This document shows positions 250 to 10,100 of a stretch of DNA of 64,000 nucleotides, piece by piece. This stretch comes from Escherichia phage PBECO4: the sequence record KC295538. One strand, written 5' to 3'. The translations under genes and the position numbers were made by a program. Within the stretch, counting starts at the first letter, position 1; each line of letters begins with the position of its first letter. The notes under the pieces are model-generated. The model saw nothing but the letters and a program-made list of their open reading frames with translations, was not told where the DNA came from and searched no databases.

Positions 250-1389
250 ATGTTACCTTTTGCAAGAATGGTTAAGTACGGGAATATCGCACCTGAACTG
301 ATTCTACCTAAAAACAGGTTACAATGTTCTGCTGATGCCAAATTTTATTTACACACAAATGGTAATCTATATTGGTTTGGTTCTTCAGCATATGGACAAA
401 GTGGTAATGGTTCATTGGACTCTTCAACTGAATGGACTCTTGTCAACTCAAATGTTACACGATATTGGGGTGGGGTACAAGGAACAATTGCTATAAAGAA
501 AGATGGTACTATTTGGTACACTGGTAGACGTACTGTTATTCCAATACTATCTTCAAACACTAACGGCGTTTGGGTTGATATAACACAGAACTTTACTGAT
601 TTCGGTGTCAGTGCAGATGATATTGATAGTGTTGTGATATCTTCGTGTATGCGTGTATTTTTAAAAAATGGAAAGTGGTTCTACTGTGGTGCTGGTACTG
701 GTGGTGTTTTTGGGAATGGATCAACTTCAAGCGTTTCACGATTCACCTATAGTACAATAGAAAATGTTATCAGTGCTGGTTGTGCAATATATAGTACTGG
801 ATTAGTACTAAATGATGGTTCATATTGGTATGCAGGTAGAACGTTTGTATCAGGAACGACGACACAAAACTTGCTCACATTTACACAAGATACTTCGATT
901 AGTAATGCAATTAAAGCAGTCAATACAAATGAAACTTCTTATATATTTCTTAATGATGGTAATGTTAAAGTTGCATCTATTAACGACTATGGACAAGCAG
1001 GTACAGGAAATAGGTCAGTAGCCCCAATGAGTACATTAATTCCAAATTTATCATTCCAAGGAGAAGTGGAGTTGGTGGGTGAGCTTGGGACAAACCTTAC
1101 CGGACCATCCTGTATAATTAATAATAATAATAAGTTATTTTCATGTGGCCTTAATTCAAATGGTCAATGTGGTATTGGTACAACTGATATGTATATAACA
1201 TCATTCGCTGAAATGGATCTTACTGCATTAGAAGGTAGTAATCTTAGTAGTTTTTGTAAGAGCTATTCTTATACGATGTTAGTTGACGAATATAATAATT
1301 TATACACATGTGGTGTACCCAATCTTACTGGAATGTCTTCAACTACTGTACCAACAAGGGTTCCTGATTCACTTCTACCGTGGAAATAA
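250..1389 (+). CDS. RCC1-like beta-propeller repeat protein, array member 1 (start at conserved MLPFARM; track ORF 88..1389 is an upstream extension)
   Basis: ATG 250 lies 7 nt after GGAGGG; N-terminus MLPFARMVKYGNIAP; repeated xLYxxGxNxxGQxGxG blades. Confidence 0.8.
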   Translation: MLPFARMVKYGNIAPELILPKNRLQCSADAKFYLHTNGNLYWFGSSAYGQSGNGSLDSSTEWTLVNSNVTRYWGGVQGTIAIKKDGTIWYTGRRTVIPILSSNTNGVWVDITQNFTDFGVSADDIDSVVISSCMRVFLKNGKWFYCGAGTGGVFGNGSTSSVSRFTYSTIENVISAGCAIYSTGLVLNDGSYWYAGRTFVSGTTTQNLLTFTQDTSISNAIKAVNTNETSYIFLNDGNVKVASINDYGQAGTGNRSVAPMSTLIPNLSFQGEVELVGELGTNLTGPSCIINNNNKLFSCGLNSNGQCGIGTTDMYITSFAEMDLTALEGSNLSSFCKSYSYTMLVDEYNNLYTCGVPNLTGMSSTTVPTRVPDSLLPWK

Positions 1390-1460
1390 TATAATGCCAG
1401 TACACTGTACTGGCTTTCTTATTTGTATTAAATATAGTATAATGAATAAAGGAGGGAAAT
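1390..1460 (+). promoter_or_regulatory. conserved intergenic cassette copy 2
   Basis: aatgccagtacactgtactggctttcttatttgtattaaatatagtataatgaataaaggaggg. Confidence 0.7.
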
Positions 1461-2609
1461 ATGTTACCTTTTGCAAGAATGATGAATTATGGGAATATTG
1501 CCCCTGGTAAGGATAGGCGTTTTAAAATATATTCAAGTGATTCTATGTATCTTCATGATACTTATACTAATAAGTTGTATGCATCTTCTGCGACGAATTG
1601 GGGTACTGGAACAGGTGTAGCATCGAGTAAATTTATTCTTTGTGCGGAGAATGTTAAACGAGTTCTATTGGAAGATAACAGTAGTAGTTGTCAATTGTAT
1701 GAAGAGAAAGGTACTGGAAAAGTTTTTATCACTGGTAACACGAAGGCATTCACTGGTGTAACTGATACAAAAACTTTGTGGACGGACTGTACTACGTGGA
1801 TAACATCAGGTGGTATTAATGTTTCTGATATAAAATACATGAGTAGTTTTAATGATATGAAGGTGAATTTGATAACAAACGATGGTACGTTGTATTGTTG
1901 TGGAGTTAACAATAACTCGAACCTATCATCATTTGGTGATGGTACAAACATTAATTCTTTTAACACATTCAAAAGGGTAGATACTATAACTTCGGTCAAA
2001 AAGGCAGTTGGTAACATATACCTAAAAGAAGATAATACTTTATGGGGTTGTGGTTTTAACTATTACTATCAGTTAGGTACAGGTAATCAAACTTCTATTA
2101 CTGGGGTGACGATGATTTCTTCAGATGTTATAGATTTTGATGTAAGTTATCAGAGTACATTTTTTATTAAATCGGATAATAATTTGTACGCTTGTGGTAA
2201 ACAGTTCGGTGCACAATACGGGAACGAATTTGGCACAGGTGGTACTTCTTCATCTACCGATATACAATACAAAACTCCGACATTATTGAGTTCAGGAGTT
2301 TATACTCTATATACTTGTGTTAGTAACATGGCATCACATATAGTTAAAGGTGATGAAGTTCTATACGCATCTGGGTCGAATGGATTTGGTCAATTAGGTG
2401 TTGGTAATAATATTAATCAGTACTCATATACTCCTTCGTATACTTCGTTTAATAGTTCGTGTAATTTGGTACGCACTCCATCTGGTTCACTTATACTTAC
2501 GGACACTGAGAAATTATATTATTGTGGGTATGCTATGGTAGTAATGGGGGGAATTGCTGGACAAAACATTCTTAGTTATACAGAAGTTGATATGTCATTT
2601 ATACAATGA
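1461..2609 (+). CDS. RCC1-like repeat protein, array member 2
   Basis: MLPFARMMNYGNIAPG leader; blades such as NDGTLYCCGVN, EDNTLWGCGFNYYYQLGTGN, SGSNGFGQLGVGN. Confidence 0.85.
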   Translation: MLPFARMMNYGNIAPGKDRRFKIYSSDSMYLHDTYTNKLYASSATNWGTGTGVASSKFILCAENVKRVLLEDNSSSCQLYEEKGTGKVFITGNTKAFTGVTDTKTLWTDCTTWITSGGINVSDIKYMSSFNDMKVNLITNDGTLYCCGVNNNSNLSSFGDGTNINSFNTFKRVDTITSVKKAVGNIYLKEDNTLWGCGFNYYYQLGTGNQTSITGVTMISSDVIDFDVSYQSTFFIKSDNNLYACGKQFGAQYGNEFGTGGTSSSTDIQYKTPTLLSSGVYTLYTCVSNMASHIVKGDEVLYASGSNGFGQLGVGNNINQYSYTPSYTSFNSSCNLVRTPSGSLILTDTEKLYYCGYAMVVMGGIAGQNILSYTEVDMSFIQ

Positions 2610-8876: not shown

Positions 8877-8947
8877 AATAAAGCCAGTATTTTGTACTGG
8901 CATTTTTTTGTCCTAAATATAATAACGATTTACATTTGGAGGATACA
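8877..8947 (+). promoter_or_regulatory. divergent copy 8 of the intergenic cassette
   Basis: agccagtattttgtactggc hairpin + T-run, then GGAGG; -10 region degenerate. Confidence 0.55.
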
Positions 8948-10100
8948 ATGCTACCCTTTGGAAGAATTATCACATCATCAAAAAAGAACATACAACCTTC
9001 TGTTACAAAAATAGCTTCATCTGATACGACAGTTTTTGCCCTTATGTCAGATGGTACGTTGTACAGTAGAGGCTCTCAAGAGTTTGGGCAAATGGGTATA
9101 GGTAATATTATAACACAAACGAAATGGGTTTTATGCAATACAAACGTAGAAGATCTATGGGTGCGGGTATGAGTCAACCTTAATAAAAAAGAAAGATAAT
9201 ACGATGTGGTACGCTGGAAATGGTGCATCATTCGGTTTATCAACTGATAAGTCAACAACGTGGTCTTCTGCAAAGATAGTGTTTGATAGAATAACAGCCC
9301 TAGGCAAAACAATAAAACAAATTGTAGTTAGTGCAGGAGCACTGAGCGTATTATGCACAGACAACACTATATGGAATACAGGCTATGGTAGTTATGGTCA
9401 ACTAGGAAATGGTAGAAGTACTGATTCACTTTCATCATTTGTACAAGGAACAGTACCTACTGGAGTTACACCATCCAAAATATTGGCAAATTTTCTTATG
9501 CAAGGTTTTATTGGAACCGATGGAAGATTGTATTATACTGGTGCAATATCAGGCGTAGGTACAACCGACATGACGTTATATTCAAAGTACACGTTATGTT
9601 CTCAAATAACTAATACCTATACAGTAAAAGATTATACAACAAACTCAAGTTACTTTGCTTTTGCTATAGCAAATAATAATAGTACTAATAAATTATTTGC
9701 ATATCATGGTGGTGGTCAATACTTTGGTCAGTTAGCAAATGGTTCTACATCACAAACATATATTTCGTTAAGACAAACAACACAAGCACCTGGCGATATA
9801 ATAAGAAGCAGTGTAGGTTATTCATATTTTTCTAATCATATTATAACTTCATTGGGTGTTTACGCAACTGGTAATAACACAGGCGATAACGCAGGACAAT
9901 TAGGTATAGGTACACAAACCGATGTGTCGGCCTATACCAAATGTGTACTACCAACAGAGATGAATATGAATAACGTATATGTTACAGCAACTTTATACAG
10001 AACTTACTTAACCGATGGTATACAAATTTACAGTACTGGACAAAATATTACAGACGGTGGAGTTGCCAGTACTGTATTTGTCAAAGATTCACCATTTTAG
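8948..10100 (+). pseudogene. RCC1-like array member 8, frameshifted near 9170
   Basis: MLPFGRIITSS... stops at 9170-9172; paralogue-like sequence (..STLIKKKDNTMWYAGNGASFG..) continues in another frame to 10100. Confidence 0.6.

Follow-up and report, generated by a model that had tools for sequence, protein, structure and literature searches.

A head-to-tail array of plus-strand genes occupies positions 1-10100 of a 64,000-nucleotide stretch of Escherichia phage PBECO4 DNA (record KC295538; the whole stretch is called the window below), with minus-strand genes on both flanks, and its members share a short leader at their 5' ends. We conclude that this leader most likely encodes a tag that is broader than was first guessed: clade-wide, portable and retained on the protein, with a genus-specific recombination cassette superimposed on it. 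The first 12 codons would encode a portable virion-association tag that forms a flexible extension before a compact binding-type domain. That domain is predicted to be an RCC1-like propeller in the window and a Kelch, laminin-G/concanavalin-like or glycine-rich body in related jumbo phages. The tag would stay on the mature protein and dock interchangeable cargo at one common acceptor site. A full-text literature search found no paper describing an MLPF leader or tag.

A shared leader opens the genes of the array

A search of the window with the leader DNA pattern returned 10 matches, compared with 0.92 expected from shuffled sequence, and no shuffle reached 10. Eight of the matches are true array starts, with their ATG at 250, 1461, 2681, 3946, 5197, 6420, 7671 and 8948; the other two carry three mismatches each and are spurious. 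The shared leader proposed by a first-pass annotation of this DNA is therefore real, although its wording, MLPFARM(M/V/I)xYGN, needed correction. The core holds, but codon 5 is variable (A, G, V or P in the window and A, G, V, T, P or R in relatives) and the position given as M/V/I is V, I, F, M or L. All eight array genes in the window start MLPFxR(M/I)xxY(G/A)N, and the general form of the tag is M-[LI]-P-F-x-[RI]-hydrophobic-x-x-Y-[GA]-N, 12 residues that always begin at Met1. When the six intact members were aligned, M1, L2, P3, F4, R6, M7, Y10 and N12 were invariant, and the whole proteins were 20-29% identical; the annotation's statement that the rest of each protein has diverged (bodies ~20-29% identical in the window) was borne out. 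The members are as follows.

1-180, plus strand: 3' end only of one more array member, truncated where the window begins; its slurp01 orthologue is the gene at L001:11070-12179
250-1389, plus strand: member m250, RCC1-like propeller (predicted), 379 amino acids (aa); tag codons 1-12 at 250-285, MLPFARMVKYGN
1461-2609, plus strand: member m1461, 382 aa; tag at 1461-1496, MLPFARMMNYGN
2681-3871, plus strand: member m2681, 396 aa; tag at 2681-2716, MLPFARMMNYGN
3946-5125, plus strand: member m3946, frame broken; tag at 3946-3981, MLPFGRMMNYGN
5197-6348, plus strand: member m5197, 383 aa; tag at 5197-5232, MLPFARMIQYGN
6420-7595, plus strand: member m6420, 391 aa; tag at 6420-6455, MLPFVRMLDYGN
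7671-8876, plus strand: member m7671, 401 aa; tag at 7671-7706, MLPFPRMIKYAN
8948-10100, plus strand: member m8948, last of the array, frame broken; divergent tag MLPFGRIITSSK (ATG CTA CCC TTT ...)

By relatedness the window belongs to Asteriusvirus, the 121Q/PBECO4/slurp01-like jumbo phages of E. coli, and it is 97% identical to slurp01, whose locus L001 corresponds at 12001-18429 to window positions 1-6440. Over 2605-10200 the window is 99.9% identical to CRJP21. We compared its array with those of six Asteriusvirus relatives (slurp01, 121Q, UE-S1, phAPEC6, SHEFM2K and WPEC3), which contain 9-18 members each, with a make-up and order that vary from phage to phage.

Codon comparisons point to selection on the tag residues

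Leaders (14 codons) and bodies were compared over 82 leader-bearing starts and 69 unique intact proteins from Asteriusvirus. Median amino acid identity between paralogues was 20% for the bodies of these 69 proteins versus 75% for the leader. Where two proteins had the same residue, they used the same codon at a frequency of 0.83 in the leader versus 0.46 in the body, so that comparing synonymous sites inside and outside the leader, as had been suggested, separated the two regions. Synonymous sites in the bodies are saturated, and the duplications are therefore old. Recent duplication with equal divergence along the whole gene, the outcome that the first-pass annotation had set against its own proposal, is ruled out as the cause of the leader likeness by the ~20% body identity and these saturated sites.

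Within Asteriusvirus, leader codons are nearly fixed (TTA, CCT, TTT and AGA at codons 2, 3, 4 and 6, AAG at codon 9 and GGG at codon 11), and variation is limited to positions 5, 8 and 9. The bodies prefer CCA, AAA and GGT, while the leader is fixed on the non-preferred CCT, AAG and GGG. Outside the genus, codon choice is free. Among 55 unique proteins from other phages, M1, P3, F4 and Y10 are invariant, N12 is present in 54 and G11 in 52, with proline encoded by CCA in 37 and CCT in 15, arginine by AGA in 27 and AGG in 16, and glycine by GGG in 22, GGT in 16 and GGA in 14. Two distant arrays (L007 and L008), which come from public assemblies and were reached via a single-sequence homologue search that yielded few relatives, consist of tightly packed genes and have none of the upstream cassettes described below. 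All seven genes of L007 start M[LI]PF[AV]RMLEYGN, with mixed codons (CCA/CCT, TTC/TTT, AGA/AGG, TTG/TTA/CTT and GGG/GGA/GGT). The leader is likewise present on Asteriusvirus members that have no cassette (a 9-nt intergenic gap with coding sequence upstream) and on the first gene of each array, and in Cronobacter phage GAP32, a member of another genus, the single-copy RCC1-like gene gp001 starts MLPFSRIIQYGN. Because the amino acids are kept while the codons vary in cassette-less arrays and in single-copy GAP32 gp001, it is the protein N-terminus that appears to be selected. We conclude from these alignments that the tag amino acids are under purifying selection across several jumbo-phage genera. 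The earlier suggestion of selection for a signal at the protein N-terminus is thereby strengthened, on the grounds of codon-free conservation, unrelated folds and enrichment in virion proteomes (see below).

In the genome UViG_3300012988 (L023/L024), the paralogues do not agree on the codon for tag residue Ser8, which is TCA, TCC, AGC or AGT. A switch between TCN and AGY takes two substitutions and is therefore a clear sign of selection on the Ser8 residue.

Tag positions 7-9 are shared within a genome, reading MLE in 7/7 genes of L007, IGV in 3/3 of UViG_3300007747 and ISK or IVK in 9/10 of UViG_3300012988, with differing codons. Identity at these positions was 0.50 within genomes versus 0.23 between genomes, a difference reached by none of 1,000 label permutations. 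We read these genome-specific positions as an indication that all the cargo of one phage may fit one acceptor.

The tag precedes unrelated protein bodies

Five of the six intact window members matched PF00415 and/or PF13540 with scores that pass the Pfam gathering threshold, and m2681 gave only sub-threshold matches to PF25390 and PF13540. A model of m5197, built with AlphaFold2 from a 13-sequence alignment (mean predicted local distance difference test score [pLDDT] 90, predicted template modelling score 0.87), predicts a seven-bladed RCC1-like propeller from about residue 20. The nearest solved folds are the seven-bladed RCC1-like domains of UVR8, RPGR and HERC2, with template modelling scores of ~0.75 (0.72-0.76 for UVR8). 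Fold similarity of this kind is the only basis for the GenBank names "DNA condensation protein" and "regulator of chromosome condensation". Residues 1-18 of the model have a pLDDT of 48-61, lie outside the blades and form at most a short helix (weak, residues 5-11), which suggests that the tag behaves as a flexible short linear motif and not as a structural strand. We had also considered the tag as a propeller-closing "velcro" strand; this was rejected because the model puts residues 1-18, with low confidence, outside the propeller, and because bodies that are not propellers carry the tag too.

Scanning IMG/VR with a degenerate DNA pattern for the motif gave 40 matches in eight jumbo-phage genomes of ~350-380 kb. 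The tagged bodies include Kelch propellers, Laminin_G_3/concanavalin-like domains and several unassigned groups of 200-245 aa, and a single array of UViG_3300012988 has RCC1-like, Kelch and laminin-G genes intermingled, each of them tagged. Within Asteriusvirus, 121Q gp243 (L002:11263-12000) and its orthologues are tagged, glycine-rich proteins of 245 aa (phrog_4474) encoded inside the RCC1-like array. Neither 121Q gp243 nor WPEC3 CDS112 matches a Pfam or NCBIfam family, and PHROGs splits the two between phrog_4474 and phrog_4219. Pectobacterium phage CBB has been reported to lack RCC1-like genes; there, the motif starts every gene of the array CBB_548-554 and also CBB_536, 537 and 247. In GAP32, both gp001 and gp002 are tagged. 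Homologues of the GAP32_002 body are found in 150-kb Certrevirus phages, where they are annotated as virion structural proteins and have a different N-terminus (MNEMLMLGQAKAKAG in CR3 gp255), and the alignment of GAP32_002 with them begins after the tag. Since the body is shared and the N-terminus is not, the tag looks like a lineage-specific N-terminal module. Judged by fold assignment, it is a portable module on at least four unrelated folds.

Further tagged genes of the gp243 type were seen at L003:13266 and L004:7325. The largest tagged protein that we saw is specified by a 667-aa open reading frame (ORF) on the minus strand of L017, with its start at offset 4200 once the locus is reverse-complemented; it begins MLPFQPLLVYGN, and its positions 5-7 deviate from the motif.

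Tagged proteins are enriched in virions and keep the tag core

Virion mass spectrometry of phAPEC6 lists the array proteins gp003, 005, 006, 007, 009, 010, 549 and 551 (PMC7247149). For CBB, 55 of 554 ORFs were detected in virions (PMC5259590), and these include eight of the ten tagged ORFs (247, 536, 537, 548, 549, 551, 552 and 553), an overlap with a chance probability on the order of 1e-7 by a rough binomial estimate. In GAP32, mass spectrometry placed gp001 among the structural proteins, and gp002 carries the annotation "virion structural protein". Tagged proteins are thus strongly enriched in the published virion proteomes of relatives.

The peptide table in the CBB supplement, from mature virions, contains peptides that fall within the tag: LFEYANVIIPPNYK is residues 7-20 of CBB_536, YANVIVEYATK is residues 10-20 of CBB_548 and LLQYGNK is residues 7-13 of CBB_553. 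The tag core is therefore not removed at maturation, and the idea that the leader is cleaved off has to be given up, as the published peptides cover tag residues 7-20. Consistent with retention, no conserved cleavage motif follows the tag, and position 9 can be any of K, N, D, Q, E, S, T and V. By inspection, the leader also fails to resemble a signal peptide of the Sec, Tat or lipoprotein type: MLPFxRMxKYGN has no hydrophobic core, has charged or polar residues at positions 6, 9 and 12, and is retained in virions. The capsid-targeting sequence of phage T4, a short N-terminal peptide on IPI-III, Alt and others, is cut by the prohead protease at (L/I)-x-E. An (L/I)-x-E site at positions 7-9, present in L007 and some CBB proteins, was considered and rejected, because position 9 is unconserved and peptides spanning the site occur in virions.

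A probable recombination cassette is superimposed on the tag in Asteriusvirus

Upstream of the leader, the Asteriusvirus genes carry a cassette that consists, in 5' to 3' order, of a hairpin (GCCAGTAC-nnn-GTACTGGC), a T-rich run, TAAATATAGTATAAT and AAAGGAGG. The annotation had described DNA identity extending upstream through the cassette. This holds for seven members of the window array, in which identity spans from about -65 (the start of the hairpin) to about +36/+42, and fails for m8948, whose cassette has diverged and whose leader reads MLPFGRIITSS with the synonymous codons CTA and CCC in place of the usual ones. The cassettes are as follows.

186-249, plus strand: cassette 1; hairpin GCCAGTAC-TCT-GTACTGGC at 186-204, T-rich run, late-promoter-like TAAATATAGTATAAC at 219-233, ribosome-binding site AAAGGAGG at 238-245
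1396-1460, plus strand: cassette 2; hairpin 1396-1414, TAAATAT box 1429-1443, ribosome-binding site 1448-1455
2616-2680, plus strand: cassette 3; hairpin 2616-2634, TAAATAT box 2649-2663, ribosome-binding site 2668-2675
3879-3945, plus strand: cassette 4; hairpin 3879-3898, TAAATAT box 3914-3928, ribosome-binding site 3933-3940
5133-5196, plus strand: cassette 5; hairpin 5133-5151, TAAATAT box 5166-5180, ribosome-binding site 5185-5191
6355-6419, plus strand: cassette 6; hairpin 6355-6373, TAAATAT box 6388-6402, ribosome-binding site 6407-6414
7607-7670, plus strand: cassette 7; hairpin 7607-7625 (GCCAGTAC-AGA-GTGCTGGC), TAAATAT box 7639-7653, ribosome-binding site 7658-7665
8883-8947, plus strand: cassette 8, diverged; hairpin 8883-8901, TAAATATAATAACGA at 8914-8928, GGAGG 8938-8942

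The GCCAGTAC/GTACTGGC hairpin has a predicted folding energy of -10 to -17 kcal/mol and is followed by TTTCTTATTT; stem variants occur as pairs (GTCAGTAC/GTACTGAC and ACCAGTAC/GTACTGGT). This G+C-rich hairpin, with the T run behind it, closes off the gene before and is, on its predicted structure, an intrinsic terminator. The box TAAATA[CT]nnnATA lies 31-32 nt before the ATG at seven array starts. Its only other copy in the window is at 41317, 37 nt before a plus-strand gene of 384 aa (41354-42508; phrog_10468, virion structural protein), and the place of this copy, before a virion structural gene, lends some support to reading the box as a putative late promoter. The T4 late promoter box is TATAAATA. 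An ATAAATA late motif has been reported for CBB and GAP32, both of which have a gene for a gp55-like late sigma factor, and our candidate late promoter agrees with that motif. In Asteriusvirus, each array gene may thus form its own late transcription unit, made up of terminator hairpin, TAAATA-type late-promoter-like box, ribosome-binding site and tag.

When the window array was aligned with the six relatives, 27 of 29 internal ends of high-identity blocks fell within -80 to +45 of a leader ATG, clustering at -76 to -64, +20 and +36 to +43. Adjoining homology blocks differ in their level of identity and in what lies next to them in other phages. Between orthologues from different phages, the body is 96.5% identical and the leader 90.4%, and these orthologues carry different leader variants (VK, MN, FD, LK or IQ, and A, G or V at codon 5) that are also found on unrelated paralogues. 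Leader DNA identity within the genus is 0.835 within genomes versus 0.824 between genomes, a small difference that was reached by 10 of 1,000 permutations and to which we attach little weight. Taken together, the frozen synonymous sites, the swapped variants and the positions of the block ends make the cassette plus tag look homogenised and exchanged by homologous recombination, so that the annotation's proposal of gene conversion or cassette recombination at the 5' ends is supported for Asteriusvirus. A cassette-tag unit of ~110 bp would be held near-identical by recombination among paralogues and would serve as a junction for exchanging gene modules and tag variants between phages. We infer that cassette and tag act as a recombination joint that shuffles whole genes.

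How the tag may act

On balance, we lean towards reading the tag as a retained N-terminal docking peptide that recruits interchangeable lectin-like and propeller binding domains to one acceptor on the particle. Unexplained hair-like appendages have been described on the head and tail of 121Q, phAPEC6 and CBB, and a survey of jumbo phages connects lectin domains of the laminin-G type with virion components, tail fibres among them. We favour surface display on head or tail appendages over an internal location because the cargo folds are of adhesin types, the tag is retained and these three phages are hairy. Several points weigh against the docking reading. Both docking to a common acceptor and the site of that acceptor are things that we infer. 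The proteomics come from relatives, namely the congener phAPEC6 and, from other genera, CBB and GAP32, and not from the window phage. Tagged CBB proteins 550 and 554 were not detected in virions, and unique-peptide counts are low (1-8, and 1-5 in phAPEC6), so some co-purification is possible. The tag-derived peptides start at residue 7, which leaves room for trimming within residues 1-6. The link to hair-like appendages is weakened by GAP32, which has tagged proteins but has not been reported to be hairy. The within-genome likeness of positions 7-9 could in part reflect shared ancestry or old gene conversion instead of co-adaptation, and block ends at cassettes are partly expected for a gene-sized block that reaches into the flanking repeat. 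A more specific version of docking seems to us unlikely in its entirety: one acceptor on the hair-like appendages would take any M[LI]PFxR..YGN protein in the manner of a plug and socket, particles would carry reshuffled, combinatorial sets of RCC1-like, Kelch and laminin-G binders, positions 7-9 would co-evolve with the socket, and the link would perhaps be covalent via the nearly invariant Asn12.

It is possible, though we doubt it, that the tagged proteins are internal head proteins whose tag binds the scaffolding core as the T4 capsid-targeting sequence does, perhaps forming the inner body of phAPEC6 and being ejected into the host, possibly as a variable anti-defence arsenal. The architecture would suit this, with a shared N-terminal peptide, candidate late promoters, a hyper-variable locus and 5'-end recombination as at T4 internal-protein loci, and so would the weak helix at residues 5-11 in the AlphaFold2 model. 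Virion copy numbers appear low, and the authors who described the phAPEC6 inner body suggested RCC1-like proteins as candidates for it. An internal location is harder to reconcile with a tag core that is retained in mature virions, with no conserved cleavage motif after it and no sequence similarity to the T4 peptide, or with lectin-like and propeller bodies of 22-45 kDa, a kind usual among surface adhesins, which could pass through the tail only once unfolded. The tag might instead be recognised inside the infected cell by a partner such as a chaperone, a modifying enzyme or a localisation factor, with presence in the virion secondary. Recognition by an enzyme or chaperone would fit the strict placement at Met1, the invariant P3, F4, Y10 and N12 and the disorder of the tag in the model, and genome-specific positions would fit any co-evolving partner. 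We regard this as rather improbable, given that eight of ten tagged CBB proteins and eight phAPEC6 array proteins occur in purified virions with the tag still on, and that no candidate enzyme gene was found conserved beside the arrays.

Two further explanations would make the peptide incidental. In one, an RNA- or DNA-level element (translation initiation, a repressor operator or an unstructured start) is what is conserved; codons 2-4, 6, 9 and 11 are indeed nearly fixed synonymously in Asteriusvirus on codons not preferred in the bodies, and codon 5 changes its residue yet keeps A as its third base in most variants. Against this, synonymous variation is free outside the genus, including the TCN/AGY serine switches, and the divergent m8948 keeps MLPF with CTA and CCC. 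RNA comprising the 5' untranslated region and leader folds no better than shuffled sequence (z -0.15 to +0.62), with structures that differ among members, and an explanation by RNA structure is therefore unsupported. A translational switch in which leader CCUUU would pair with AAAGG in the ribosome-binding site was rejected for similar reasons: folding is like that of shuffles, m8948 has no compensatory change, and synonymous variation at codons 3-4 is free elsewhere. We accordingly set aside the annotation's option of a signal at the mRNA 5' end as very unlikely. In the other explanation, to which we give almost no credence, a functionless peptide simply hitch-hikes in a repeated cassette through gene conversion or recent duplication. 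Identity in the window does run unbroken from the hairpin through codon 12, and leader variants do move between paralogues. The leader is, however, equally conserved in members that have only a 9-nt gap and coding sequence upstream, in the cassette-less L007, L008 and CBB arrays and in single-copy GAP32 gp001. The duplications are old (0.46 in the body) and leader variation is confined to positions 5, 8 and 9, and the differing codons exclude recent horizontal transfer of one DNA segment to the distant leaders.

Array content and neighbouring genes

Two window members have broken frames. In m3946 the break lies near 4070 (cgtggaCggaaac) and leaves a 59-aa fragment and a 358-aa RCC1-like ORF at 4049-5125; in m8948 it lies near 9165 and leaves a 74-aa fragment and a 298-aa RCC1-like ORF at 9204-10100. 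The 59-aa fragment recurs in slurp01, SHEFM2K and WPEC3, and the 74-aa fragment in slurp01, 121Q and SHEFM2K; in phAPEC6, the fragment of this last-member type is 52 aa long. No obvious slippery site was seen at either break. The recurrent frameshifted members could be inherited pseudogenes, shared sequencing artefacts or cases of recoding.

In phAPEC6 (L004, MK817115), tagged ORFs at 2434, 6063 and 7325 (369, 396 and 244 aa) are unannotated or partly annotated, and only a fragment of the gp243-type protein (gp004) is annotated, which makes its proper scoring in the proteome impossible. Some members were probably missed in the published count of "eleven RCC1-like proteins" and in the database used for the proteome search. 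In WPEC3, a tagged RCC1-like gene at L006:24790-25914 (MLPFVLLFDYGN) lies away from the array, past a minus-strand gene; Leu replaces Arg at its tag position 6, and its upstream region is different.

Directly 3' of the window array, the opposite strand (10081-12205, minus strand) carries a gene of 220 aa (phrog_34359) and four small genes for hydrophobic proteins that look like paralogues (123, 141, 122 and 104 aa), the first of which is phrog_27618. CBB has "putative membrane protein" paralogues (CBB_539-547) in the matching position beside its tagged array. On the left flank in relatives there is a tandem run of 15-25 opposite-strand genes of ~60 aa (L001:1524-6119, L002:1231-5067, L005:1740-6543 and L006:1140-5542), several of which are phrog_11711 according to the SHEFM2K record notes; this is a second paralogue array adjoining the RCC1-like one.

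Implications and comparison with known systems

If our reading is right, the 9-18 genes per genome labelled "DNA condensation/RCC1" would be re-read as interchangeable cargo of a virion-association tag. A simple prediction rule follows for the 350-kb Rak2-like phages, in which a start of M[LI]PFx[RI]..Y[GA]N would mark a candidate virion protein (in CBB, 8/10 are confirmed). The tag makes the composition of the hair-like appendages or the inner body, and the recruitment of accessory proteins, testable. Should it suffice for incorporation, it would offer a compact, engineerable handle for loading or displaying proteins on jumbo phages. The Asteriusvirus arrays also document, as far as can be judged from comparing genomes, a unit of terminator, candidate promoter, ribosome-binding site and tag as a joint that shuffles whole genes.

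The T4 capsid-targeting sequence is MKTYQEFIAE-like, and the T4 internal-protein locus has its own late promoters, is variable and multi-gene, and undergoes exchange at conserved 5' sequences. The first-pass annotation had drawn an analogy with these internal proteins, and its architectural side holds: both systems place a peptide of ~10-12 residues at the extreme N-terminus of unrelated virion proteins, and both have a variable locus subject to 5' exchange; the late-promoter-like boxes of the array would be the counterpart of the T4 late promoters. The analogy breaks down over processing, since the core of the window-type tag is kept in mature particles and has no conserved cleavage motif. 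None of the 120 leaders resembles the T4 sequence (by inspection), and T4 cargo consists of small basic proteins, whereas the tagged cargo consists of propellers and lectin-like domains of 22-45 kDa.

The anchors of tail fibres, tailspikes and decoration proteins resemble the tag in combining a conserved N-terminal element with an exchanged distal binding domain, and in being retained in the virion, lineage-specific and recombined at the junction. Unlike tail-fibre and tailspike anchors, the tag comprises ~12 disordered residues and not a folded domain, and it occurs on up to ~18 paralogues per genome. Its cargo consists of single globular domains, and neither the one modelled member nor the Pfam matches show evidence of a fibrous or beta-helical shaft. 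The window bodies share their seven-bladed propeller with the RCC1-like domain proteins (PF00415/PF25390; RCC1, UVR8, HERC and RPGR); in contrast to those proteins, the phage versions are virion-associated, and Kelch or laminin-G cargo can take their place behind the tag.

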